Both the position numbers and the translations under genes were made by a program. This document shows, piece by piece, positions 5,137 through 63,319 of a stretch of 64,000 nt of DNA (position 1 is its first letter; each line of letters opens with the position of its first letter). The notes under the pieces are model-generated. The model was not told where the DNA came from and ran no database searches. It was given only the letters and a program-made list of their open reading frames with translations. Source of the stretch: an uncultured Bacteroidales bacterium (lineage in GTDB: Bacteria > Bacteroidota > Bacteroidia > Bacteroidales > WCHB1-69); contig ONCM01000001.1 of assembly GCA_900316305.1 (NCBI GenBank), forward strand, positions 3,380 through 67,379. The letters run 5' to 3'.

Positions 5137-5928
5137 ATGAAAAAAATATTTTTAGCAATGGCCGTTCTAGCGATGCTTTTTTCTGGCTGTAAAAAAGAGA
5201 ACAACACTGTCGAGAATCTATCCGAAAAGATTATGGGGATGTGGATAATGACCGACAAAAACGGGCATCCTCTGCCAACCAACGAGAAGTTTGTTTACAC
5301 CTTCGTGTCTGACACCAAAGCCTATGTCAGCGCTTCGATTACCACACATCCGGAAACGGGGACGTTTTGGAATGACCAATTAGAAACCGACGTCACCATC
5401 AGCGACAACAAGATGATGCTCACCGGTCACCCCAACGAACACACGACGGTGATGGAGTATTACACCGTTACCGCCATCAACGACAGCGAGTTTACTGCGA
5501 ACTACGAGGTGACCGTGACGATTGACGGCAACGTGGCGGGCAACGAAACGATGGTTCTTCGTTTCGTCAAGGTCAAAGTCAACTACAAGCCGGAAGTCAT
5601 CGGCTTTTGGGAATGCACGGAGCTGACGGGCATTGAGACCTTTAACGATGTTAATGCACGGCTAATGTTCTACTACGACGGAACATACAAGTACTGGACC
5701 AAGAACGCCGATGGAGAGTGGCAGCCCGTAACCACGCGCGAGTTCCAAGACTACTTTGTCGACGGCACGTTGCTTGCTACTCGCTGGAAAAACGTTGGTG
5801 AGGATGAATTACGCGAATGGTGGGAAATCACCAGCATCGCCGATTATCAGATGGAATGGACCGCTCTGCGCCAGAACCCTGACGGATCCATCGTACGGCA
5901 GGGAGCGAAATGGAAAAAAATAAAATAA
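5137..5928 (+). CDS. hypothetical lipoprotein
   Basis: Signal peptide plus lipobox MKKIFLAMAVLAMLFSGC. I recognised no catalytic motif. Confidence 0.6.
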   Translation: MKKIFLAMAVLAMLFSGCKKENNTVENLSEKIMGMWIMTDKNGHPLPTNEKFVYTFVSDTKAYVSASITTHPETGTFWNDQLETDVTISDNKMMLTGHPNEHTTVMEYYTVTAINDSEFTANYEVTVTIDGNVAGNETMVLRFVKVKVNYKPEVIGFWECTELTGIETFNDVNARLMFYYDGTYKYWTKNADGEWQPVTTREFQDYFVDGTLLATRWKNVGEDELREWWEITSIADYQMEWTALRQNPDGSIVRQGAKWKKIK

Positions 5929-8993: not shown

Positions 8994-9024
8994 TTTGTAC
9001 GATCAACTAATTTTATTATTTTTG
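8994..9024 (+). promoter_or_regulatory. promoter TTTG-N19-TATTTTTG for the SpoIIE-like phosphatase operon
   Basis: TTTG at 8994-97 and TATTTTTG at 9017-24. The ATG is at 9050. Confidence 0.5.
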
Positions 9025-19943: not shown

Positions 19944-19971
19944 GTAGAGACGCAAAATCTTGCGTCTCTAC
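19944..19971. terminator. GTAGAGACG-family hairpin, copy 2
   Basis: GTAGAGACGCAA-aatc-TTGCGTCTCTAC, lying between convergent genes (19905 / 19999). Confidence 0.65.
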
Positions 19972-53130: not shown

Positions 53131-53418
53131 TTCCTCATTTTTTATGGCCGCGAAAATAGAATCCCTATGGATCCGGGAAAAGAAAAATGGGCCGAAACGG
53201 CCAAAAACAGGGCTGAACCGACGGAAAGAAGGGCTGAAGCGGATGCGCACGCAGGTCATTTGCCCGTGTTTTGCAGGGCACTGGGATTCGCCTGTGGTGA
53301 AAAGGGGAGGTCACACGGCAATCACGGAAAGCACAGAAAGGTTCGCCTGCGGCGAGTGTGGGTGGTCATGCGGATTTCACGGGTAGCATGGTTTTGGGGG
53401 CGGGAAAGGTTAAAGCGC

Positions 53419-54333
53419 TCACCCATTCAGCTTCCACACCGTCTTGCCGATGCGGGAGATTTCCTTGCGCAACGTCTTGGGAGCCAGCACCTCGGCGGTT
53501 TCGCCCAACCCCAGCAGCTCCTGGACGAAGTCGAAAGTGGGACGGAGGAAGTAGGTGAAAATGGAATAGTCTTCCGTGCGCTCGACCTCCTTTTGCGACG
53601 GGTGCAGCGGCAGCGAGCGCAAGTACTTGGACTGGAAGGCATCGACCTTCAGCCGGATCAGCTGCGGCTCCTCGTCGCCAACAATGATGCCGAAGCAGGT
53701 GCCGAAGAACTCCGCCGCATTGAAGTCGGCGGGCAGCGTGAAGCTCTCAAACTCAATGTCGATATCCTGCATCCTGTCCAGCGCATAGACCTTCAGCGGG
53801 CTGTCACCATATTTGCCCAGCAGGTACCACCGCCGCTTGAATACCTTCAGCGCATAGGGTTCCACATGGTAGAAATTCGACATGTAGTCATCTTCCACCC
53901 AGAACGGTTTGTAACTGAATGTCAGCATCTTGTTGTCGCGCATCGCCTCCAGAACGGTGGGCAGGAACTCCTTGCCGGAGGGGATCTCTTCTATGAGGAT
54001 GCGATCTTTCAGCTGGCTGCTCTCCTCCAGTTGGCTGTTGAGCGAAAGCGCATCCAAAAGCCACCCCTTGAAGCCAGAACTGTCCTTGAGGTCGTGACTG
54101 TTGGCGATATAATAGGAGTTGGTGTTCTTGTGGCAGGCAATCTCGATACCGAACAGCTCGCGCACCGCCGCCACATGGTTATGGAACGAGCGTCTCGGGT
54201 ACTCCTCCCCGCCGGAAAGCCGGTCGTTCCGCTCCCATTTGGCGGAGATCTCTTTCAGGGTAATTCCCGACCATCCCGCCGTGTTAATCGTGTCTATCAG
54301 CCAGATATACTTTCTTATAAGGTCTTTTGTCAT
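53419..54333 (-). CDS. WYL-domain transcriptional regulator
   Basis: N-terminal HTH-like region (YIWLIDTINTAGWSGITLKEI) and a WYL-type core KRRWYLLGKY. Confidence 0.65.
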   Translation of the reverse strand: MTKDLIRKYIWLIDTINTAGWSGITLKEISAKWERNDRLSGGEEYPRRSFHNHVAAVRELFGIEIACHKNTNSYYIANSHDLKDSSGFKGWLLDALSLNSQLEESSQLKDRILIEEIPSGKEFLPTVLEAMRDNKMLTFSYKPFWVEDDYMSNFYHVEPYALKVFKRRWYLLGKYGDSPLKVYALDRMQDIDIEFESFTLPADFNAAEFFGTCFGIIVGDEEPQLIRLKVDAFQSKYLRSLPLHPSQKEVERTEDYSIFTYFLRPTFDFVQELLGLGETAEVLAPKTLRKEISRIGKTVWKLNG

Positions 54334-54360: not shown

Positions 54361-54394
54361 CAAAAATAGTCAATTGGTGTGAAAGTTTGTGGCA
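54361..54394 (-). promoter_or_regulatory. island-type promoter TGCCAC-N20-TATTTTTG (WYL gene)
   Basis: The minus strand reads TGCCAC (54389-94), then 20 nt, then TATTTTTG (54361-68). Confidence 0.5.
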
Positions 54395-54427
54395 CAGTTG
54401 AAAAGATGGTGAAGACAAACAATAACA

Positions 54428-55864
54428 TCAAAACAAACAATCCATCGTGAGACTGCGTTGGATGCGGCTGGAATATTCGTTGTTCTTCAGACCGTACGTG
54501 GTCATCATGGTCAGATGAGGCGTTTTCCTGTTTCCGACTTCTTCCATAAATGCCTGTGCTTTTTCGCGTAATTCCTGGTCGTATGCTTTGGTAATGGTGT
54601 ATTCGGCATTGGAGAATTTCATCTCACAAATGTTCACAATTCTGTCTGCACGGTCAATGACCATGTCAATCTGATGCGCCGGTGTGACCTCTTTGCTCCT
54701 CCACGGGGCTATTTCTGTGTGTACACCACTGATTCCGAGAGCCGCCTTTATCTTATCTGAATGTTCAAAACAAACGGTCTCGAAGGCGAAGCCTCGCCAT
54801 GCATTGAGTTTGGGTGACAGCAGGTTGTCCTGCCAAAAAGTACGGGAGAGATTTTTCACATTGTCGATGAATTTGAGATAGAAAAGGCAGAAATTATCAA
54901 CCAGTTTGTAGCATTGGTAGCGTGAAGAACGGTTGTAGGGTGTGTAATCGGTGATAAAATCGCTGGCTGTAAGCGATTTCAACAGTTTGGTCAGCCCTCC
55001 ACCGTAGGGTATCCCTGTCAGTTCTGCAATCTTTTTTCTTGGAAAACCTTCGCGGCGGGTAGCCAACAACCGCACCACTTTTTTGCAGTCCTCGTGGTTG
55101 GTGAAAAGCGAAGCGAAAAGCCGGTCGAACTCGTTGCGCAGCTGAGCGTGGTGGTCGAAAAAAAGGCTGTCGATATTTTGTGCCAAACTTTTTCCTTTTT
55201 GCAGACCATCCATATAGAAGGGCACCCCACCCATAATCATATAGCATTGCAGTTGGTCGTATCTGTCCATCACAATTCCTTTACTATGGTAATAGTCGGC
55301 ACATTCTGACAGCTTGAATGGTTCAAGATGTATCTCGCAGGTCACGCGGTCGTACAGACCACCTTTGTTGTTAATCAAGCTGTCCTCCATCCAAGATGTG
55401 GCAGAACCGCAAACGATGAGCATCAGGTTCTTCTGTGCGGATGCCCAGCCGTTCCAGAAATGCTCGAAGGCTGTAATGAACCCCGATCTTTCGGTGTCCA
55501 TCCAAGGCAGTTCGTCAATGAACACCACGCAGCGTTTTTTGCGGCTGTGCTTTTTCAAAAGAGCAATAAGCATGTCGAAAGCCTCCATCCAGTTTGTCGG
55601 AACTGTTTCGATAGCAGCTCCGAACTGTCGTAGCGATGAGGCAAAATTCTGCAACTGGAGACCCAATACGCTGAATTTCCCATTCTCTGTTTCAACAGGG
55701 GAAAGTCCTGTATGGTAAAAGCACCATTCCTCCTGATAAAGTTCGCGTATCAGATAGGTTTTCCCGATCCTTCGTCTCCCATACACGGCAACCAGCTCTG
55801 CTTTTTTAGAGCAATAAATTTGATTTAGTTTTTCTATAACAGGCTGTCTTCCAATAATATTCAT
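54428..55864 (-). CDS. ATP-binding protein (Arch_ATPase/DUF234-type AAA)
   Basis: Walker A YGRRRIGKTYL and Walker B VVFIDELPW, with a C-terminal DUF234-like region. Confidence 0.7.
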   Translation of the reverse strand: MNIIGRQPVIEKLNQIYCSKKAELVAVYGRRRIGKTYLIRELYQEEWCFYHTGLSPVETENGKFSVLGLQLQNFASSLRQFGAAIETVPTNWMEAFDMLIALLKKHSRKKRCVVFIDELPWMDTERSGFITAFEHFWNGWASAQKNLMLIVCGSATSWMEDSLINNKGGLYDRVTCEIHLEPFKLSECADYYHSKGIVMDRYDQLQCYMIMGGVPFYMDGLQKGKSLAQNIDSLFFDHHAQLRNEFDRLFASLFTNHEDCKKVVRLLATRREGFPRKKIAELTGIPYGGGLTKLLKSLTASDFITDYTPYNRSSRYQCYKLVDNFCLFYLKFIDNVKNLSRTFWQDNLLSPKLNAWRGFAFETVCFEHSDKIKAALGISGVHTEIAPWRSKEVTPAHQIDMVIDRADRIVNICEMKFSNAEYTITKAYDQELREKAQAFMEEVGNRKTPHLTMMTTYGLKNNEYSSRIQRSLTMDCLF

Positions 55865-56003
55865 ATTATATTGCGATTTGCTTATTCTGCCGCAAATATA
55901 TAAAAAACATCAATTGCGGCAAAATAAAGGAGCATGGTATGATCGGATATTTTGTGGCAGAGTTAAAAAATGATATTGCCAAAATTTTTCATTCAGTATT
56001 TTT

Positions 56004-56042
56004 CACTGTGCTTCGGAATGGCACAGTGGCGTTTTATTTTTG
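56004..56042 (+). promoter_or_regulatory. island-type promoter, degenerate -33 (TGCTTC-N20-TATTTTTG), with palindrome CACTGTGC-N9-GCACAGTG
   Basis: The -7 box is at 56035-42 and the 8-bp inverted repeat at 56004-11 / 56021-28. The core is near-identical to that of the 59075 promoter. Confidence 0.45.
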
Positions 56043-56145
56043 CAGCGTCTTAGGAGCTGCGGCATTCCTGCCGCACACATAGGAGATTCGACATCCTTGC
56101 CGCGCCTAAACAAATAACAGTTGTTACATTATTAATATTGTCGTT

Positions 56146-57918
56146 ATGAAAAAAGAAAACAACCTAATTCAGATCCTGAGCTTCCTCGCCGTACAAATGG
56201 AAGACTCTGAAACGCAATTGATTAACGCCATTGCACCGGGTACACTGCCGGAATACGAGCGCCCAAGACGACGCAACGGGAAAAGAGAACCATTGGAGCC
56301 GGAAGAGCCTCGTTACAAATCCGAAATAGTGGAACAAGCGGTGAAGGAAAACCAATTATTAGCCGAATTTTTAGATGTCACGCCGTTACAGGCAACCATC
56401 TTCGTGGCGGGATTCGCCCAAAATGTTGACCGCAACGACTTCGACAAAGACAACATCAGTTCGTTCTTCGGCATCAAAAGCATGGAATTTCTGATGATGA
56501 GAAACGACTTTGAAGAACTGGTTCGCAAACGCATCTTTTTGGACGAAAAGACACATCAGTTCAGTGATAGAAACAACTATATTATTAATCCGCAGGTGAA
56601 AGAGGCTATTTTTGATGGCAAAAAGTTGGATTTGAAAACGCTTGAAGCATCTGATTTTGACCGTTACCAGTTTGTGAATGCGGTTTCGAACCTCATCGAA
56701 AGCCGGGAAAATGAAAAAGTGTCCAGTTTTCGGCTATTCAGACATATAGAGCCTTTGGAGAACCAGCACAAAAATCTCACTTTCTTGAAAAACTTCCTCA
56801 AATTGAATTTTGACGTAGAGGTTCGCACACTTTTCTACGAAATCTGCGACGATTTCGTCACCACACGCGATCGTGAAAGCGACATAGAGTGCACCTTGAA
56901 AGACATCTATAAAGAGACGTACCAGAGAATGGATGTGGCCAGAGAACTCAAAGATGGAGAGCATGAACTGCAAAAAGCCGGACTCATTGAGGTGACCCAA
57001 GACAGTATGTTTTCTGATGCCTCCATCGTACTCACCGACAAAGGCAAACAGCTGTTTTTGGAAGAGGATTACGATCTTTTCAGCACCAACAGTCGCAGTC
57101 AAAGCTTGATCTATCCCGACAAAATCGCCGAAAAGCCCCTGTTCTACGACCAAGAACTGTCCAAACAGTTGGAACTTTTCAAGGAGAACCTTGCCGATGG
57201 AAAATTCTCGGAGCTGCAGCAGCGGTTGGAGAAACAGGCATTACCCAAAGGTGTTGCTGCCTTGTTCCATGGTCTGCCTGGCACCGGAAAGACCGAAACG
57301 GCGATGCAGATTGCACGCGCCACAGGTCGGGCGGTATGCCATGTGGATATTAGCTCAGCAAAAACTTGCTGGTACGGCGAGAGCCAGAAGCTTGTGAAGG
57401 GCATCTTCACCAACTACCGCAGACTTTGCGAAAAGGAGAAGCTGAAGCCCATCCTGCTTTTCAACGAGGCCGACGCGCTGTTGAGCAGCCGCCAGAATAT
57501 CAACAACATTAATGGTTCCAGCAGTGTGGCGCAGACCGAGAACGCCATCCAGAACATCATCTTGGAGGAGATGGAAAAGCTCGACGGCATCCTCATCGCC
57601 ACCACCAACCTTACCGAAAATCTCGACAGCGCCTTCGCCCGCCGCTTCCTCTTCAAGATCAAGTTCGGGCAGCCGACCGAGGAGGCCAAGCAGAGCATTT
57701 GGAAGAGCAAACTTTCCTGGCTCACCGATGACGACTGCCGTCAATTAGCTGCCCACCACGACTTCTCCGGCGGCGAAATCGACAACATTGTCCGCAAGGT
57801 GGTGATGGAGGAGGTTCTCCACGGCACCCGCCCTACTTTGGCGGAGATCGAGGAACTTTGCCGACATGAGAAGATTGGGGACGGAGGAAAAGGGAGTAGT
57901 ATTGGTTTTCAGGCATAG
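56146..57918 (+). CDS. classical AAA+ ATPase with an unassigned ~340-aa N-terminal domain
   Basis: Walker A GLPGTGKTE, Walker B ILLFNEADAL and a second region of homology LDSAFARRF. Confidence 0.75.
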   Translation: MKKENNLIQILSFLAVQMEDSETQLINAIAPGTLPEYERPRRRNGKREPLEPEEPRYKSEIVEQAVKENQLLAEFLDVTPLQATIFVAGFAQNVDRNDFDKDNISSFFGIKSMEFLMMRNDFEELVRKRIFLDEKTHQFSDRNNYIINPQVKEAIFDGKKLDLKTLEASDFDRYQFVNAVSNLIESRENEKVSSFRLFRHIEPLENQHKNLTFLKNFLKLNFDVEVRTLFYEICDDFVTTRDRESDIECTLKDIYKETYQRMDVARELKDGEHELQKAGLIEVTQDSMFSDASIVLTDKGKQLFLEEDYDLFSTNSRSQSLIYPDKIAEKPLFYDQELSKQLELFKENLADGKFSELQQRLEKQALPKGVAALFHGLPGTGKTETAMQIARATGRAVCHVDISSAKTCWYGESQKLVKGIFTNYRRLCEKEKLKPILLFNEADALLSSRQNINNINGSSSVAQTENAIQNIILEEMEKLDGILIATTNLTENLDSAFARRFLFKIKFGQPTEEAKQSIWKSKLSWLTDDDCRQLAAHHDFSGGEIDNIVRKVVMEEVLHGTRPTLAEIEELCRHEKIGDGGKGSSIGFQA

Positions 57919-57927
57919 AGACGTGCG

Positions 57928-57957
57928 TGTAGAGACGCGGCGTGCCGCGTTTCTACA
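57928..57957. terminator. GTAGAGACG-family hairpin, copy 5 (one stem mismatch)
   Basis: tGTAGAGACGCGGcgtgCCGCGTTTCTACa, lying between convergent genes (57918 / 57981). Confidence 0.6.
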
Positions 57958-57980
57958 GCCCCCATAGGCCAAAGTTAGTG

Positions 57981-58808
57981 TTAAGCCAGTATTGTGTCAG
58001 ACAACATCCTATGATTCCCATAATGCTCCAGCACACTCATTTGCTGAATGGCAATCAGGTTCAACTTCTCCAAACGTTCGCTTTGGGGGAGCCCTTCGTT
58101 TATGAACACAGCGTTCAAATTTTCCAAATTGGAGAGACAAATCAGCTGGTTCATCGTGGCGTAGTCGCGAATGTTTCCCTTCAGTTCAGGGTTCGCATCG
58201 CGCCACTCCTTGGCGGTCATCCCGAACATCGCCACATTCAGCAAATCCGCTTCGTCGGCATACACGTAAGACTTCTGCTCAGGGGTGAGTTTTTGGGGAA
58301 TCAGATGCTGCTTAATGGCACTGGTGTGAATGCGATAGTTGATCTTCGCCAGTTCTCGCTTGACACTCCATCCCAACTGCTTCTGCTCTGCCTCTTTCAG
58401 ACGTTGGAACTCTTCAATGAGATACAACTTAAAGGACACACTGATGGCAGACCCGAATTCAAAAGCGATGTCCTTATGCGCGTATGTCCCTCCGTAACGG
58501 CCTTTTTTGACAACGATTCCTATGGCGTTGGTGCTTTCAATCCATTCGCTACAACTAAGCACAAAAGACGGAAGTCCCGCTTGTTTTCTAAAGTGGTCAA
58601 ATTCGACCACTTTAAAATCTGGATTATGGATGATTTCCCATACACCGAGAAATTCTATCGTGTATCTATTTCTCAACCAGTTCTTTATCACATCAGCTGC
58701 ACGAGATTCATAGCCTTTTGCTCCTGCCATATCAGTCAGACTAATAAAATCCTGATCCCCATTTGTGATAATTGTTATTTCCGTGTCTTGTACTTTAATT
58801 TTTGCCAT
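57981..58808 (-). CDS. KilA-N domain-containing protein
   Basis: MAKIKVQDTEITII..DFISLTDMA...IKNWLRNRYTIEFLGVWE..NPDFK. The ATG at 58808 is preferred, with a -7 box 28 nt upstream. Confidence 0.65.
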   Translation of the reverse strand: MAKIKVQDTEITIITNGDQDFISLTDMAGAKGYESRAADVIKNWLRNRYTIEFLGVWEIIHNPDFKVVEFDHFRKQAGLPSFVLSCSEWIESTNAIGIVVKKGRYGGTYAHKDIAFEFGSAISVSFKLYLIEEFQRLKEAEQKQLGWSVKRELAKINYRIHTSAIKQHLIPQKLTPEQKSYVYADEADLLNVAMFGMTAKEWRDANPELKGNIRDYATMNQLICLSNLENLNAVFINEGLPQSERLEKLNLIAIQQMSVLEHYGNHRMLSDTILA

Positions 58809-58835
58809 ATCATTGTTTTTAAAATTTCCAAGCCA

Positions 58836-58843
58836 CAAACATA
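58836..58843 (-). promoter_or_regulatory. -7 box TATGTTTG for the KilA-N gene
   Basis: The plus strand reads caaacata, 28 nt upstream of ATG 58808. Confidence 0.4.
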
Positions 58844-59044
58844 CAAAATCCCTTCAATAAAATCAATGCAAATATCAATTTAACTCATTAAAAATCAAAT
58901 ATATAAAAATGACATTTTTCGATGTAAAAGTGGCAGATTTCGTGATAAAAATGTCAAATTGTAAAAAATGTGCGAAACCGAATGGGGGCGCGCATCGAGC
59001 GGAACTAAAGGATTTCTGGAAGAATATGGCGTGAAGACGTGCAT

Positions 59045-59072
59045 GTAGAGACGCACGGCCGTGCGTCTCTAC
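59045..59072. terminator. GTAGAGACG-family hairpin, copy 6
   Basis: GTAGAGACGCACGGCCGTGCGTCTCTAC, a perfect palindrome immediately upstream of an island promoter. Confidence 0.55.
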
Positions 59073-59074
59073 GG

Positions 59075-59108
59075 TGCCACGGACCGGCGCAGTGTCGTTT
59101 TATTTTTG
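59075..59108 (+). promoter_or_regulatory. island-type promoter TGCCAC-N20-TATTTTTG
   Basis: TGCCAC at 59075-80 and TATTTTTG at 59101-08. The ATG is at 59133. Confidence 0.5.
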
Positions 59109-59132
59109 CAGCGTTGAAAAAACAACAAAGAT

Positions 59133-59816
59133 ATGAATAAAGAATTGAAAGACAACAAAGAATGGATTGAACTGAAAGCTACGCTACGTTTTGTGGAGGA
59201 AAAGATACTCGGCATTATGGATGTGAATGGATGGATGATGAACAGAGAGCTCGAAGAGCAGGTGAAAGATTTGCTCTCCGACCGGCATGTGATTATGAAC
59301 AAGATGTTCAGGATACATGTGACAGACCAAGAGGTGGCGCGGTTCCGCGAGGTGAACGACCACCTGCTGGATTTGACCCAACAGTTGTACGATGGACACG
59401 ATGTCTTGATGGACTTCCTCTGCGTCAATTTCATTGAAAGTTGCTGTCCTGGTACAGTTATACAGGTGGAGAGTCGGCTGGATGTGGACGAGGCTGCCGA
59501 AGTGTTGCATTTTAATGATGATGGAGATTACGGCTCCAATTTTGCGCAGATGCTTGATGCCCTTGCCTGGACTGAGGACATTGAAATCCGTTCCTTTATC
59601 ACCAATCTCGGAGAAAAGCCCGAGCCTGATAATCTTGACGACGGCACCACTTGGGCAGAAGGCTGTTTGGACATACCGCAATTCAAAGACATCGTGGTCT
59701 GCTATGCTATCCACGACCTTTGTACTCACAAGAGCTATTCCGTGCCAGATCTGCTCCGGATTCAGTCATACAATATCCGACATTGCCTTGAAAGTAATAG
59801 AAAGCACCCTGCATAA
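59133..59816 (+). CDS. hypothetical acidic protein
   Basis: 227-aa ORF directly behind an island-type promoter. No motif recognised. Confidence 0.55.
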   Translation: MNKELKDNKEWIELKATLRFVEEKILGIMDVNGWMMNRELEEQVKDLLSDRHVIMNKMFRIHVTDQEVARFREVNDHLLDLTQQLYDGHDVLMDFLCVNFIESCCPGTVIQVESRLDVDEAAEVLHFNDDGDYGSNFAQMLDALAWTEDIEIRSFITNLGEKPEPDNLDDGTTWAEGCLDIPQFKDIVVCYAIHDLCTHKSYSVPDLLRIQSYNIRHCLESNRKHPA

Positions 59817-59897
59817 TAGAAAATAAAAGGCAGTTTCAAATTATTATTGTACTTTTGCACCTTGAATAGATTAACTTAATCAACAAAATCATACGTT

Positions 59898-60116
59898 ATG
59901 TTATACAGAGTAACAGTAAAAAGCAATAGGATTGCCAATGGTATCCGGTTAGAAAAGGGAATGTCTGTTGAAGTGGTATCCCAATCATTTCCTTTATTAA
60001 GCACTCAACAAGGGAAAGAACAAGTAAACAATGCTTTTAAAGCCAAGTATGGAGTTGACATAAAGAAAGCGTGTGCGGATACATCCCTTTATTTGGATGT
60101 GGTAAAAATCAATTAA
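59898..60116 (+). CDS. small hypothetical protein (72 aa)
   Basis: ORF in an AT-rich block, 12 nt upstream of the next gene. Confidence 0.45.
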   Translation: MLYRVTVKSNRIANGIRLEKGMSVEVVSQSFPLLSTQQGKEQVNNAFKAKYGVDIKKACADTSLYLDVVKIN

Positions 60117-60128
60117 AACATTTGTGAT

Positions 60129-60983
60129 ATGATAGACTATATTGCCGAAAACGAACGCATTCTCAATGAATGGAGAAAAAGTAATGAAGAACGTGGGGAA
60201 ACAAACTTTGCCGACGATGGAATAATGAATAAAGGAAATTACTATCTTGATAAGGATTATGATAATGCAATACGCCGTCACCGACATGAAAGCAAATTAG
60301 AAAACACGATGTGGAGTCAGTGCCCATTGCGAGTTCTTTTTTTGACTAAGGATGAGAATACCGATGGTAACGATGCTTGGGATGTTCGAACAGAAACTTT
60401 TTATAAAAAAGGAGGAGAGATTCCCCCAAGTAATAATATTGTGTCAGATAGTTTCTTTTATCAAAATGAGGCATGTCTTTTTTATGGACTACGTAATACA
60501 AAGCCAGAAAAGATGATATTGTATGATGGCTTTTCTTGGGAAGAAGCCTTGAAATTTTCTGATGAAAAGATTTTTGCACGAATTAATTGCAAAAAAGAAG
60601 CGGGGGATCCAACAATATTGGATAGTGTATTAGGAGATGCGATAAAAGAGAACTATAAATATCTAAAGGAACAAATCTTGACATTAGATGCCGATATTCT
60701 TGTTTGCTGTGGACATCAAAACGACAACAATTTAATACTAAACACCGTCTATGATATATATATAGATGAGTTTAAATACGTGGATTGTGTTGATGGCAAA
60801 GGGACTGGAATGCATTACAACAAAAAACGAAACAAACTGGCAATTGATGCCTATCATTTGGCGTTTTTTAAAGGCGGATTAGAAGCAAGATATGATGAAA
60901 CTGTAGGAATGTATTATGAGTTTTTAAAATACCTAAAGAAGACAGAGAGTATTGACTTTTCCGCATCACATCGCATAAAATAG
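60129..60983 (+). CDS. hypothetical protein (284 aa)
   Basis: Long ORF in the AT-rich block. The motif order RVLFLTKDEN / NCKKEAG / ILVCCG / YHLAF is faintly reminiscent of the uracil-DNA-glycosylase superfamily, which is speculative. Confidence 0.5.
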   Translation: MIDYIAENERILNEWRKSNEERGETNFADDGIMNKGNYYLDKDYDNAIRRHRHESKLENTMWSQCPLRVLFLTKDENTDGNDAWDVRTETFYKKGGEIPPSNNIVSDSFFYQNEACLFYGLRNTKPEKMILYDGFSWEEALKFSDEKIFARINCKKEAGDPTILDSVLGDAIKENYKYLKEQILTLDADILVCCGHQNDNNLILNTVYDIYIDEFKYVDCVDGKGTGMHYNKKRNKLAIDAYHLAFFKGGLEARYDETVGMYYEFLKYLKKTESIDFSASHRIK

Positions 60984-61148
60984 CTGGGAATTCTGCACTG
61001 CCCAATTGCATGTTTTTTAGCAAATAATAGCATTTTCTACATTGACCCCTGTCGCTAGTAGGCGGAGGTTTTCGTTTTCTTCTTGCCATATAATCATGAA
61101 AACAATGTGCCGACAGGACGATATTGACATAAAAAATATTTCGAGATG

Positions 61149-61182
61149 TGCCACAAATTGGCATACCCTTGTTGTATTTTTG
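61149..61182 (+). promoter_or_regulatory. island-type promoter TGCCAC-N20-TATTTTTG with palindrome TGCCA-N5-TGGCA
   Basis: TGCCAC at 61149-54, TGGCA at 61159-63 and the -7 box at 61175-82. It is flanked by the 8-bp inverted repeat TCGAGATG/CATCTCGA. Confidence 0.5.
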
Positions 61183-61223
61183 CATCTCGAAAAGAAGCAA
61201 AAAACATATTAAACAAGATTATT

Positions 61224-61421
61224 ATGAAAAGTAACGAAAAAGAAGAATATTACGAATACCTTCAACTAACAGTATACGATGAGGATGGACAATATGGCTG
61301 AGATGTGTGGTTGGATCAACTACTGGACGATAGCATGGGAGATCGTACAAAAGAAGAAAAAATTGACTATTTGAATGCTATTATTCGCGACATTGAGCAT
61401 TACAGAGATTCATTATTGTAA
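61224..61421 (+). pseudogene. small ORF (64 sense codons) interrupted by one in-frame TGA at 61299-61301
   Basis: It reads MKSNEKEEYYEYLQLTVYDEDGQYG-TGA-DVWLDQLLDDSMGDRTKEEKIDYLNAIIRDIEHYRDSLL-TAA in a single frame. An island-type promoter lies 42 nt upstream. Confidence 0.45.
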
Positions 61422-61504
61422 TTGATAGTGAATCGGCAAGCACTGCAAGGCTTGCAAACGGCGGGAGTTCTGTTCGGATCCGATAGCATGATTTGTCAAC
61501 GAGG

Positions 61505-61541
61505 GTGTGCCATAAACTGGCACACCCTTGTTGTATTTTTG
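61505..61541 (+). promoter_or_regulatory. island-type promoter TGCCAT-N20-TATTTTTG with palindrome GTGTGCCA-N5-TGGCACAC
   Basis: The 8-bp perfect inverted repeat is at 61505-12 / 61518-25 and the -7 box at 61534-41. Confidence 0.5.
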
Positions 61542-61571
61542 CGTTTCGAAAGAAACGAAAACATCAATAAT

Positions 61572-61931
61572 ATGGAACTATATGTTGAATCTCGCATGAA
61601 GGGAATGTATGAAGTAGGTACAGCAACAGAAAAACTGACACCAGAGTATCTGGATAATTTTATTAACGACATCGCTGCTGTCGAGAAACTCGGTTTCTCA
61701 ATACAGCCTATAGCTAATCTGATAGCATCTGGATATCCGAGCGAGAAAAACCTTGTGTGGCAGCTCATGAACCGTTACGGAATTACCGACCGGCAGGCTT
61801 TGCTGATGGTGAATCTACCATCTCACGATATCCCTCTGTATTTCGACAAGAAGGAATATCCTCGTCAGATAGAGCGACTGAAAACCATACGGCGACTATT
61901 GCAAGAGATGAAAGCTGTTTTAGATAAGTAA
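61572..61931 (+). CDS. hypothetical protein (119 aa)
   Basis: The ATG at 61572 lies 31 nt after an island-type promoter. The track ORF 61422..61931 would read through that promoter. Confidence 0.5.
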   Translation: MELYVESRMKGMYEVGTATEKLTPEYLDNFINDIAAVEKLGFSIQPIANLIASGYPSEKNLVWQLMNRYGITDRQALLMVNLPSHDIPLYFDKKEYPRQIERLKTIRRLLQEMKAVLDK

Positions 61932-62053
61932 GTAGTGATAATTAAATCAAATAAATTACTGCTTTGAAAGAACTTTTTTGTAACATTTTTGTTTTTAGCA
62001 TACTTTATTGGTGAGAACAATATTAGTGAGAACAATAAAAAAACAAAAAAGTT

Positions 62054-63031
62054 ATGAAAAACATTGAAGAACAGATTGTTATCTATCAAACTGAAGACGG
62101 CAAAACAGCAATTGATGTACGTTTAGAGAACGAAACCGTTTGGCTCTCGCAAGCCCAAATGGCAAACTTATTCCAGAAAGACCAGTCGGTGATCGCTCGG
62201 CACATCAGCAATGTGTTCAAGGAGGGGGAGCTTGACAAGAATAGTAATATGCAAATTATGCATAATACTTTGTCTAAGTACAAACCCACCACGCTCTATT
62301 CCCTCGATGTCATCATCTCCGTAGGCTACCGCGTGAAGAGCCAGCGGGGTGTCGATTTCCGCAAGTGGGCGAACACGGTGCTGAAGGCCTATCTGATCAA
62401 CGGCTATGTGGTGAATGAAAAAATCCGGAAAAAACAGATTGGCGAACTCAGACAGCTCGTTCAAATGCTCGGAAGAACCATTCAAAACCAGCCGTTGCTA
62501 AAGAACGACGAGAACCAGGCACTGTTCGACATTGTGGTTGACTACACCTACGCGCTCGACACGCTCGACAATTACGATTACCAGCAGTTAGTGGTGGGTG
62601 GAACCACCCAAGAGGAAATGTTTCAGGCCACTTACGACAACGCGAAGCAAGCCATCGCGGCTTTGCGGGAGAGATTCGGCGGCAGCCCCCTTTTCGGCAA
62701 CGAAAAGGACGGTTCCTTCAAGAGCTCCATCGGCCAAATCTATCAAACCTTCGACGGTAACGACCTTTATCCCAGCGTGGAGGAGAAAGCGGCCATGCTG
62801 CTCTATCTGGTCACCAAGAACCACTCGTTCAGCGACGGCAACAAACGCATCGCCGCCACACTGTTCCTTTGGTTCCTCAACAACAACGGCATCCTCTATC
62901 ACGAAGACGGCAGCAAGCGCATCGCCGACAACACTTTGGTGGCTCTCACCCTGATGATTGCGGAAAGCAATCCTGAGGAAAAGGATGTGATGGTCAAGGT
63001 GGTGGTGAATCTGATCAACAAGAACAACTGA
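62054..63031 (+). CDS. RhuM-family N-terminal domain fused to Fic/DOC domain protein
   Basis: The N-terminus WLSQAQMANLF...ISVGYRVKSQRGVDFRKWA is RhuM-like. The Fic motif is HSFSDGNKRIAA. Confidence 0.8.
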   Translation: MKNIEEQIVIYQTEDGKTAIDVRLENETVWLSQAQMANLFQKDQSVIARHISNVFKEGELDKNSNMQIMHNTLSKYKPTTLYSLDVIISVGYRVKSQRGVDFRKWANTVLKAYLINGYVVNEKIRKKQIGELRQLVQMLGRTIQNQPLLKNDENQALFDIVVDYTYALDTLDNYDYQQLVVGGTTQEEMFQATYDNAKQAIAALRERFGGSPLFGNEKDGSFKSSIGQIYQTFDGNDLYPSVEEKAAMLLYLVTKNHSFSDGNKRIAATLFLWFLNNNGILYHEDGSKRIADNTLVALTLMIAESNPEEKDVMVKVVVNLINKNN

Positions 63032-63064
63032 TACGGGCGAGGACATCGGGACGACATCCCCACC

Positions 63065-63089
63065 GTGGAGACGCAGGCCGCGTCTCCAC
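63065..63089. terminator. GTAGAGACG-family hairpin, copy 7 (variant GTGGAGACGC)
   Basis: GTGGAGACGC-aggcc-GCGTCTCCAC, 34 nt after the stop of 62054..63031. Confidence 0.55.
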
Positions 63090-63091
63090 TA

Positions 63092-63125
63092 TGCCACGCA
63101 CTGGCACACCCATGCCTTATCTTTG
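63092..63125 (+). promoter_or_regulatory. island-type promoter TGCCAC-N20-TATCTTTG with palindrome TGCCA-N5-TGGCA
   Basis: TGCCAC at 63092-97, TGGCA at 63102-06 and the -7 box at 63118-25. Confidence 0.5.
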
Positions 63126-63175: not shown

Positions 63176-63319
63176 ATGATGATGTACACATTAAATTTTC
63201 CGAACGGCATGAGCCAGACGTACTCCACGTCCGGCGAACTGATGAACGCAGCGCACAAGATGGGCGGCACCGCAAAATCGATAGGCAACAAGACCTACGT
63301 GTTCGTGCCGAAGAAGTAG
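63176..63319 (+). CDS. small hypothetical protein (47 aa)
   Basis: MMMYTLNFPNGMSQTY... begins 50 nt after an island-type promoter at 63092-63125. Confidence 0.35.
   Translation: MMMYTLNFPNGMSQTYSTSGELMNAAHKMGGTAKSIGNKTYVFVPKK

Follow-up and report, generated by a model that had tools for sequence, protein, structure and literature searches.

A WYL-domain regulator family of Bacteroidales and its probable operator, a palindrome held at one promoter register

The stretch of DNA analysed here, hereafter the window, comprises 64 kb from the genome of an uncultured Bacteroidales bacterium, and its source contig (L064; L numbers denote individual loci) comes from a rumen metagenome. The region from 53 to 64 kb is a variable island, while the remaining 53 kb are core sequence. 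The island begins directly after a core gene for a TolC-like outer-membrane protein. Its first gene (53419-54333, minus strand) encodes a transcription factor of 304 amino acids (aa) with a winged helix-turn-helix (HTH), a helical linker and the two domains WYL and WCX. Island promoters had been predicted to place TGCCAC, or once TGCCAT, exactly 20 nt upstream of a -7 box TAnnTTTG. Searching the window for TGCCAY-N20-TAnnTTTG returned five exact matches, all inside the island and all at the predicted places. One of them, 54361-94, is on the minus strand, and the other four (59075, 61149, 61508 and 63092) are on the plus strand. The expected count is 0.01, and none of 100 dinucleotide-preserving shuffles got to five. 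A sixth site at 56009-42 had been regarded as a degenerate copy. It does deviate from the 14 specified operator bases at three positions, yet it is not simply degenerate, as it forms a palindrome with 8-nt arms. Each of the six sites lies 25-60 nt 5' of an ATG and on the correct strand. TGCCAC had also been proposed to be one half of a palindrome in three copies, and indeed TGCCA-N5-TGGCA occurs in the 64 kb solely at 61149, 61508 and 63092. The core sequence contains no operator site, even with four mismatches tolerated. In the two core promoters that had been cited for comparison, TTTG stands at the corresponding position, with N19 and N21 between it and the boxes at 9017 and 26082, respectively.

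Alignment of the six promoters revealed a single conserved module, (C)TGTGCCAC-NNN-CTGGCACACC-N7-TATTTTTGC, with unrelated flanks on both sides. The WYL gene's own promoter (54361-54396, minus strand) contains the operator TGTGCCA-caaac-TTTCACA at 54378-54396, with an imperfect proximal half-site, and the -7 box TATTTTTG at 54361-54368. All other promoters are on the plus strand. The promoter at 56004-56042 precedes the gene of a 590-aa AAA+ ATPase (56146-57918, plus strand; Pfam AAA, 1e-21; IetA-like in PADLOC) and consists of the palindrome CACTGTGC-N9-GCACAGTG (56004-56028) and a -7 box at 56035-56042. A gene for a 227-aa protein (59133-59816, plus strand), homologs of which (p227) are present in other motif loci, is driven by the promoter at 59073-59108, with the operator GGTGCCA-cggac-CGGCGCA and the -7 box at 59101-59108. 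The promoter at 61147-61182 carries a perfect core palindrome TGCCA-N5-TGGCA and lies in front of a small gene (61225-61421). At the promoter of the gene for a 119-aa protein (61497-61541; gene 61572-61931) the palindrome CAACGAGGGTGTGCCA-taaac-TGGCACACCCTTGTTG has arms of 16 nt (61497-61533) and is followed by a -7 box at 61534-61541. The core palindrome is again perfect at 63090-63125, the promoter of the genes for a 47-aa protein (63176-63319) and an ADP-ribosylglycohydrolase (63368 onward), and this module of promoter and downstream genes was also found in L005, L007, L033, L055, L057 and L063. Two further motif promoters are located on the source contig past the window end.

Some of these promoters are similar beyond the motif. 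Those at 61149 and 61508 share 84% identity across 56 nt, 5' untranslated region included, and those at 56009 and 59075 share 84% across 44 nt. Such identities would be expected if a promoter cassette had been copied along with its cargo and were shared by descent in one mobile element, with no dedicated factor involved. This explanation can be weighed against the distribution of the motif in other genomes. A scan of 185,579 genomes, one per species, with the pattern TGCCAYNNNNTGGCAYACNNNNNNNNTANNTTTG yielded 64 matches in 63 loci, where about 4 are expected by chance according to our calculation. The matches come almost entirely from rumen and gut Bacteroidales, with two or three of them on each of several contigs. 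Viral contigs gave no match to the pattern. Between the genome matches, the flanks, the central N5 and the spacer from -21 to -13 are unrelated, and the dyad and the -7 box alone are kept. Since flanks and spacers differ in this way, the element is kept by selection and not merely by descent. About 12 WYL proteins are among the first open reading frames (ORFs) downstream of the matches, and they share the N-terminal LIRKYVWLxDTI signature with the window protein. A WYL homolog is encoded in 29 of the 63 motif-selected 8-kb loci (tblastn). Contrary to the earlier claim, the architecture is not island-specific and recurs across Bacteroidales wherever this WYL family occurs. Two loci assigned to other lineages contain Bacteroidota-type -7 promoters with the motif, L019 from a metagenome-assembled genome labelled Methanolobus and L009 from one labelled Eubacterium; L019 also encodes a WYL homolog. 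With labels of an archaeon and a Firmicute, these contigs are probably mis-binned.

For a sample chosen independently of the motif we used 80 metagenome loci (940 kb) that were picked by WYL-protein homology alone (40-92% identity), the homolog scan being based on a 10-sequence alignment. Sites were accepted with up to three mismatches in the 14 specified bases, and the spacing to the TAnnTTTG box was counted from N14 to N27. Seventy-five sites had the N20 spacing, two had N21 and one had N18; all other spacings were empty, and the reversed sequences of the same loci gave no site. Every perfect TGCCA-N5-TGGCA in these loci (22 of 22) has, at N20, a -7 box with one mismatch or none. The N20 sites precede the WYL gene itself in 33 cases and other genes in 42. 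An own-promoter site within three mismatches was thus found in 33 of the 80 protein-selected loci, and about 10 more loci have weaker sites. Within 2 kb of the WYL gene there are 0.69 sites per 10 kb, and at 8-10 kb this density has dropped to 0.09. Taken together, 64 genome matches and 75 metagenome sites with unrelated flanks, N5 and spacer, and sites that track the presence of the WYL gene, are hard to reconcile with a copied cassette. The same holds for the dyad positions, which mirror each other. Contradicted by the flanks, the phasing, the dyad mirroring and the perfect palindromes alike, this explanation is very improbable. The motif is instead genuine, a regulatory element shared by unrelated cargo genes that are co-regulated through it, as the original prediction had it.

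A sequence logo of 72 distinct sites shows that T-40 and R-39 mirror A-22 and Y-23, even though these positions are outside the search template, and that the centre is T-rich. The operator is therefore defined as the 19-bp dyad TRTGCCA-N5-TGGCAYA. When the TA of the -7 box is set at -12/-11, the dyad spans -40 to -22 with its centre at -31. Its half-sites fall at about -38 to -35 and -27 to -24, and the dyad occupies the -33 box position, 8 nt upstream of the -7 box. In 0-6% of the motif promoters a TTG is found at the canonical -33 place (gaps of 18-21), compared to about 25% of other promoters when summed over these gaps.

A missing -33 box might also point to a dedicated alternative sigma factor, either of the extracytoplasmic function type or sigma-54, for which TGCCAC would be the -35-like element, and TGGCAC does resemble the -24 box of sigma-54 promoters. 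A dedicated sigma had been one of the options initially considered. However, the downstream element is the housekeeping box TAnnTTTG, the upstream element has a two-fold symmetry unlike that of sigma recognition elements, and among the island genes neither a sigma gene nor a sigma domain was found. We regard this explanation as extremely improbable. For sigma-54 in particular, none of the island promoters matches TGGCAY-N5-TTGCW even at one mismatch, and the WYL promoter lacks the GG. A LexA-like operator was rejected as well, as the Bacteroidetes forms GGA-N5-TCC and CTAA-N5-TTAG differ from the motif (PMC8565304). The idea of a promoter in single-stranded DNA (ssDNA) or of a hairpin was dropped by reasoning, because the short dyad is located upstream of the start site and leaves out the -7 box.

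Which protein reads this operator? The WYL protein is very probably the reader, given that the site is found before WYL genes in many genomes and that sites cluster around these genes. The operator also resembles those of DriD and DdaA, and operator variants track changes in the recognition helix. We compared own-promoter operators with the triplet of residues that follows R[ST]F in the putative recognition helix, where R48 and F50 are nearly invariant. Proteins with the triplet xNx go with TGCCA operators, xRx, which occurs in three lineages, goes with TGACA or TGTCA in four of five operators, and HKW goes with TGCAA or TGTAA. This covariation is suggestive of direct readout, judged from few independent lineages. 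The protein and the dyad are thus very probably a real and widespread Bacteroidales regulator-operator pair, previously undescribed, with an architecture that matches a known kind. The WYL family counts more than 1,600 homologs, and literature searches returned no WYL regulon described in Bacteroidota.

The operator of the WYL gene itself (54378-54396) has the imperfect proximal half-site TTTCAYA in place of TGGCAYA. Nearly all orthologs sampled at 60-100% identity (L068-L079, L148) keep this half-site. The exceptions are single-base variants and L078, which has the perfect variant palindrome TGACA-N5-TGTCA. Target promoters in the same islands as the imperfect WYL operators are perfect, and judged by these sequences this looks like a conserved difference in affinity between the own operator and the targets. 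In L031 (~5190-5270) and L047 (~1610-1690) a single palindrome is located between divergent genes. Its distance is N20 to the cargo gene's -7 box and ~N25 to the WYL gene's putative box, and it is probably phased for one direction only. The arrangement recalls that of driD/CCNA_03891.

The domains of the window protein are readily recognised in its C-terminal part. Pfam finds the WYL domain (PF13280, 2e-10, above cut-off), in which W169-Y170-L171 align with N191-Y192-L193 of DriD, and the WCX domain (PF25583, 7e-9), which is modelled by AlphaFold2 with a predicted local distance difference test (pLDDT) of 79-96 over residues 221-304. The N-terminal HTH has no Pfam match. In the model it appears as a winged HTH with helices 3-18, 26-35 and 47-61 and a beta-hairpin at 65-76 (block-mean pLDDT ~64-89). 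A family profile compared to the PDB gave PafBC (3e-21) and DriD (~1e-17), and far behind them CapW (1e-4) and BrxR (1e-3). Foldseek with the full-length model placed DriD first (4e-10), followed by PafBC, CapW and BrxR. By these profile E values and this Foldseek order the protein falls outside the CapW/BrxR sequence cluster.

DriD is a homodimeric WYL activator of an SOS-independent response to DNA damage in Caulobacter crescentus. It binds as a homodimer to ATACGAC-N7-GTCGTAT with an AT-rich centre, and a DriD site is present in the own promoter of 68 of 69 homologs (PMC10853764). DriD sites of the form CGACA-N5-TGTCG lie over the -35 position of all regulated promoters, which have no -35 box, and their distance to the -10 box does not vary (PMC13004042). 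Counting on the promoters and the optimised -35 construct printed there, we place CGAC at -38 to -35 and GTCG at -27 to -24, and hence in the same register as TGCC and GGCA here. The two systems share the domain order (winged HTH, helical bundle, WYL, WCX), and DriD is the best full-length fold match. They also have in common a palindrome with equal half-site spacing, a CA-N5-TG core and a T- or AT-rich centre, a site over the -35 (here -33) place at a fixed distance to the -10 (here -7) box, and a site in the own promoter. Unlike DriD, the window protein belongs to another phylum and would act in front of a Bacteroidota -7 box TAnnTTTG instead of a proteobacterial -10. The half-site letters differ, sequence identity is ~18%, and several of the arginines that contact ssDNA are not conserved. 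The predicted targets here are local genes of variable islands, and the targets of DriD are the chromosomal recA, recJ, dnaG and didA. Finally, activation is known for DriD, whereas it is predicted from sequence for the protein described here.

Other WYL factors are similar in part. PafB contacts -23 to -28 at hybrid promoters that have no -35 box (PMC8635444), and SiwR depends on the -26 region (PMC10693628). These actinobacterial factors work by sigma adaptation at promoters with a canonical -10 and no -35, and the -23 to -28 contact coincides with the place of the TGGCAY half-site here. PafBC is also the best sequence match of the WYL-WCX part (3e-21). In contrast, PafBC itself is a fused heterodimer, its site is non-palindromic and it does not bind DNA unless polymerase is present, whereas here a full dyad is found, which implies a homodimer on both half-sites. 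DdaA of Moraxellaceae recognises CGWCA-N5-TGWCG and activates DNA-damage and repair genes and anti-phage genes (PMC12392091). Like the putative factor described here, it is a homodimeric WYL protein with a 5-N5-5 site. Its motif, however, is located ~50 bp upstream of transcription starts and not at -31, and its regulon is genome-wide and replaces SOS, whereas the sites described here cluster within ~10 kb of the regulator.

These data suggest that the island WYL protein is probably an activator of the DriD kind that regulates its own gene, takes over the role of -33 recognition and jointly controls unrelated cargo genes of the island. In such a mechanism the factor would bind TRTGCCA-N5-TGGCAYA as a homodimer via its N-terminal winged HTH, the operator being built into housekeeping-type Bacteroidota promoters at a single fixed register. 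The WYL domain would take up a ligand, by analogy probably a single-stranded nucleic acid, upon which the dimer would dock on the operator. The docked dimer may then help the RNA polymerase holoenzyme at promoters with a good -7 box and no -33 box, presumably in a working mode as in DriD, PafBC and SiwR. The motif, its phasing, its co-occurrence with the WYL family, its place ahead of WYL genes and the kinship of the protein with DriD and PafBC are shown here, and we infer that the protein binds the operator directly, with which sign it regulates and which ligand it takes up. An activator is favoured because of the base-exact phasing, the lack of TTG at the canonical -33 place and the kinship with known activators.

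The same factor and operator could also work with the opposite sign. In this case, the WYL protein would be a repressor of the BrxR/CapW type that blocks polymerase over -40 to -22, and constitutive promoters would be released upon a signal to the WYL domain, for instance phage infection or DNA damage. BrxR and CapW repress bacteriophage exclusion (BREX) systems, cyclic-oligonucleotide-based anti-phage signalling systems (CBASS) and other defence islands, and as in these systems the WYL gene is found at the edge of an island of the defence type, it is predicted to be autoregulated and a palindromic operator overlaps the (core) promoter. The island is rich in the PADLOC defence candidates PDC-S27, S22, S23 and S05, and a WYL ortholog of 82% identity has the same kind of position. 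A weaker half-site at the own promoter would suit negative autoregulation, and the -7 boxes are perfect where the -33 box is weak in general. However, occlusion needs no base-exact phasing of the kind found at 75 of 78 sites and at all 22 perfect palindromes, which is a usual trait of activators whose work depends on contact with polymerase. Moreover, BrxR and CapW usually have one operator per system, whereas here many promoters per island carry it in one exact register. Their sequence and fold similarity to the window protein (1e-4 to 1e-3) is many orders of magnitude below that of DriD and PafBC, and operator geometry and register equal those of DriD. A repressor is thus unlikely, yet it has to be taken seriously. 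Of the two signs initially considered, with the WYL protein named as the repressor candidate, the base-exact -7 phasing and the similarity to DriD and PafBC favour an activator.

Several observations weigh against the WYL protein being a DriD-like activator. The sign of regulation is deduced from phasing and from similarity to activators, and the WYL regulators known from defence-island edges, BrxR and CapW, are repressors. In these genomes even ordinary promoters conserve the -33 box poorly; this makes the absence of TTG a weak test, and a perfect -7 box might therefore suffice for basal activity, as a repressor would need. About one third of the sampled WYL homologs have no recognisable site; many of the site-less genes sit in an operon directly behind another gene. 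The AlphaFold2 model of the WYL protein has a low overall confidence (pLDDT 65), the winged HTH and the WCX domain being its confident parts, and our statements on its structure are therefore kept at the domain level. Finally, four of nine residues that contact ssDNA in DriD are kept or conservatively replaced (Y168, Y192, R204, W206) and R176, R178, K202, R207 and Y240 are not, which makes the ligand uncertain.

To describe the regulon, we clustered the first ORF after each of 194 motif sites. The WYL gene itself follows 56 of them. The commonest non-self targets are ATPases similar to the 590-aa protein (AAA590-like; 28 of 194), and the orthologous AAA ATPase promoter in L059 carries TGCCA-N5-TGGCA. 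A mixed cluster of DnaB_C-like and p227-like proteins follows 15 sites, the 47-aa protein 11, RtcB 7 and an RNase_T-type exonuclease 6, and additional ORFs encode ADP-ribosylglycohydrolase, a SpoU methylase and many orphan proteins. Within the island, an activating WYL protein would switch on its own gene, the AAA ATPase, the 227-aa and 119-aa proteins, and the 47-aa protein together with the ADP-ribosylglycohydrolase. Two more predicted targets, a P-loop protein and a DnaB_C-like protein, are encoded farther along the contig, and in other genomes RtcB, a DnaQ-like exonuclease and the SpoU methylase would belong to the set.

In a broader and more tentative reading, which we find plausible without counting it as probable, a WYL activator borne by variable or mobile islands of gut and rumen Bacteroidales reprograms the unusual housekeeping polymerase of Bacteroidota by base-exact replacement of -33 recognition, in the manner of DriD and PafBC in other phyla, and acts as a nucleic-acid-sensing switch for a portable regulon of defence, counter-defence and nucleic-acid repair, with the AAA ATPase, the DnaB_C-like protein, RtcB, the exonuclease and the ADP-ribosylglycohydrolase as members. 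If this is true, any cargo gene could join the regulon by acquiring a 34-bp promoter cassette. To our knowledge, very few sequence-defined regulator-operator pairs outside carbohydrate utilisation are known in Bacteroidota. The analysis adds a precise operator, its probable cognate regulator family and a predicted regulon. It raises the questions whether the divergent sigma factor of Bacteroidota, with its -7/-33 promoters, also supports activation of the DriD/PafBC kind, and which signal turns on variable defence and repair islands in gut and rumen Bacteroidales. For the engineering of Bacteroides, operator and -7 box together make up a candidate inducible promoter part.

Besides the genes behind motif promoters, the island encodes an ATPase_2 protein (54428-55864; PDC-S27), a KilA-N protein (PDC-S22), a 72-aa protein (DUF6140), a 284-aa protein and a RhuM-Fic protein (PDC-S23/S05). 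It goes on past the window on the source contig with PDDEXK_4, IS4-type transposase, PLDc_2 and DnaB_C genes. Within 21 kb of contig the IS4-type transposase is present, but no integrase or transfer gene. The 82% WYL ortholog is again located at the border between core genes and a variable island, which is a different one, and in that island the sole site is at the ortholog's own promoter. The PDC-S27 gene has an ordinary promoter of its own and separates the WYL and AAA ATPase genes in the window. In the close relatives L005, L007, L018 and L063 these two are directly divergent neighbours, and judged by gene order the PDC-S27 gene therefore looks like a recent insertion into the intergenic region between regulator and target.

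The intergenic region between the TolC-like gene and the WYL gene (53160-53400) contains two imperfect direct repeats, ggattcgcctgtggtg... and ggttcgcctgcggcgag..., which may mark the island boundary. Core and island share a recurrent GC-rich hairpin, GTAGAGACGC-N8-GCGTCTCTAC, at 923-950, 19944-19971 and 59045-59072, with variants at 57929-57957 and 63065-63089. The hairpins at 59045-59072 and 63065-63089 lie directly 5' of the motif promoters at 59073 and 63090, and a hairpin is in the same position in the orthologous loci L005, L007, L018, L033, L055, L057, L059 and L063. It looks like a genome-wide terminator or an element similar to repetitive extragenic palindromes that insulates promoter cassettes. 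An Rfam search of 52-64 kb found no RNA family.

The small gene behind the 61149 promoter (61225-61421) is apparently frameshifted, with a 25-aa ORF followed by a second frame, and intact homologs of 77-78 aa are found in L004 and L058. The ADP-ribosylglycohydrolase gene is split on the source contig (window 63368-64000; L064 11321-13804), with a gene for an AAA_14/DUF4143 ATPase (L064 12218-13567) in between. Related loci likewise have the N-terminal 152 aa and the hydrolase domain 1-2.5 kb apart.

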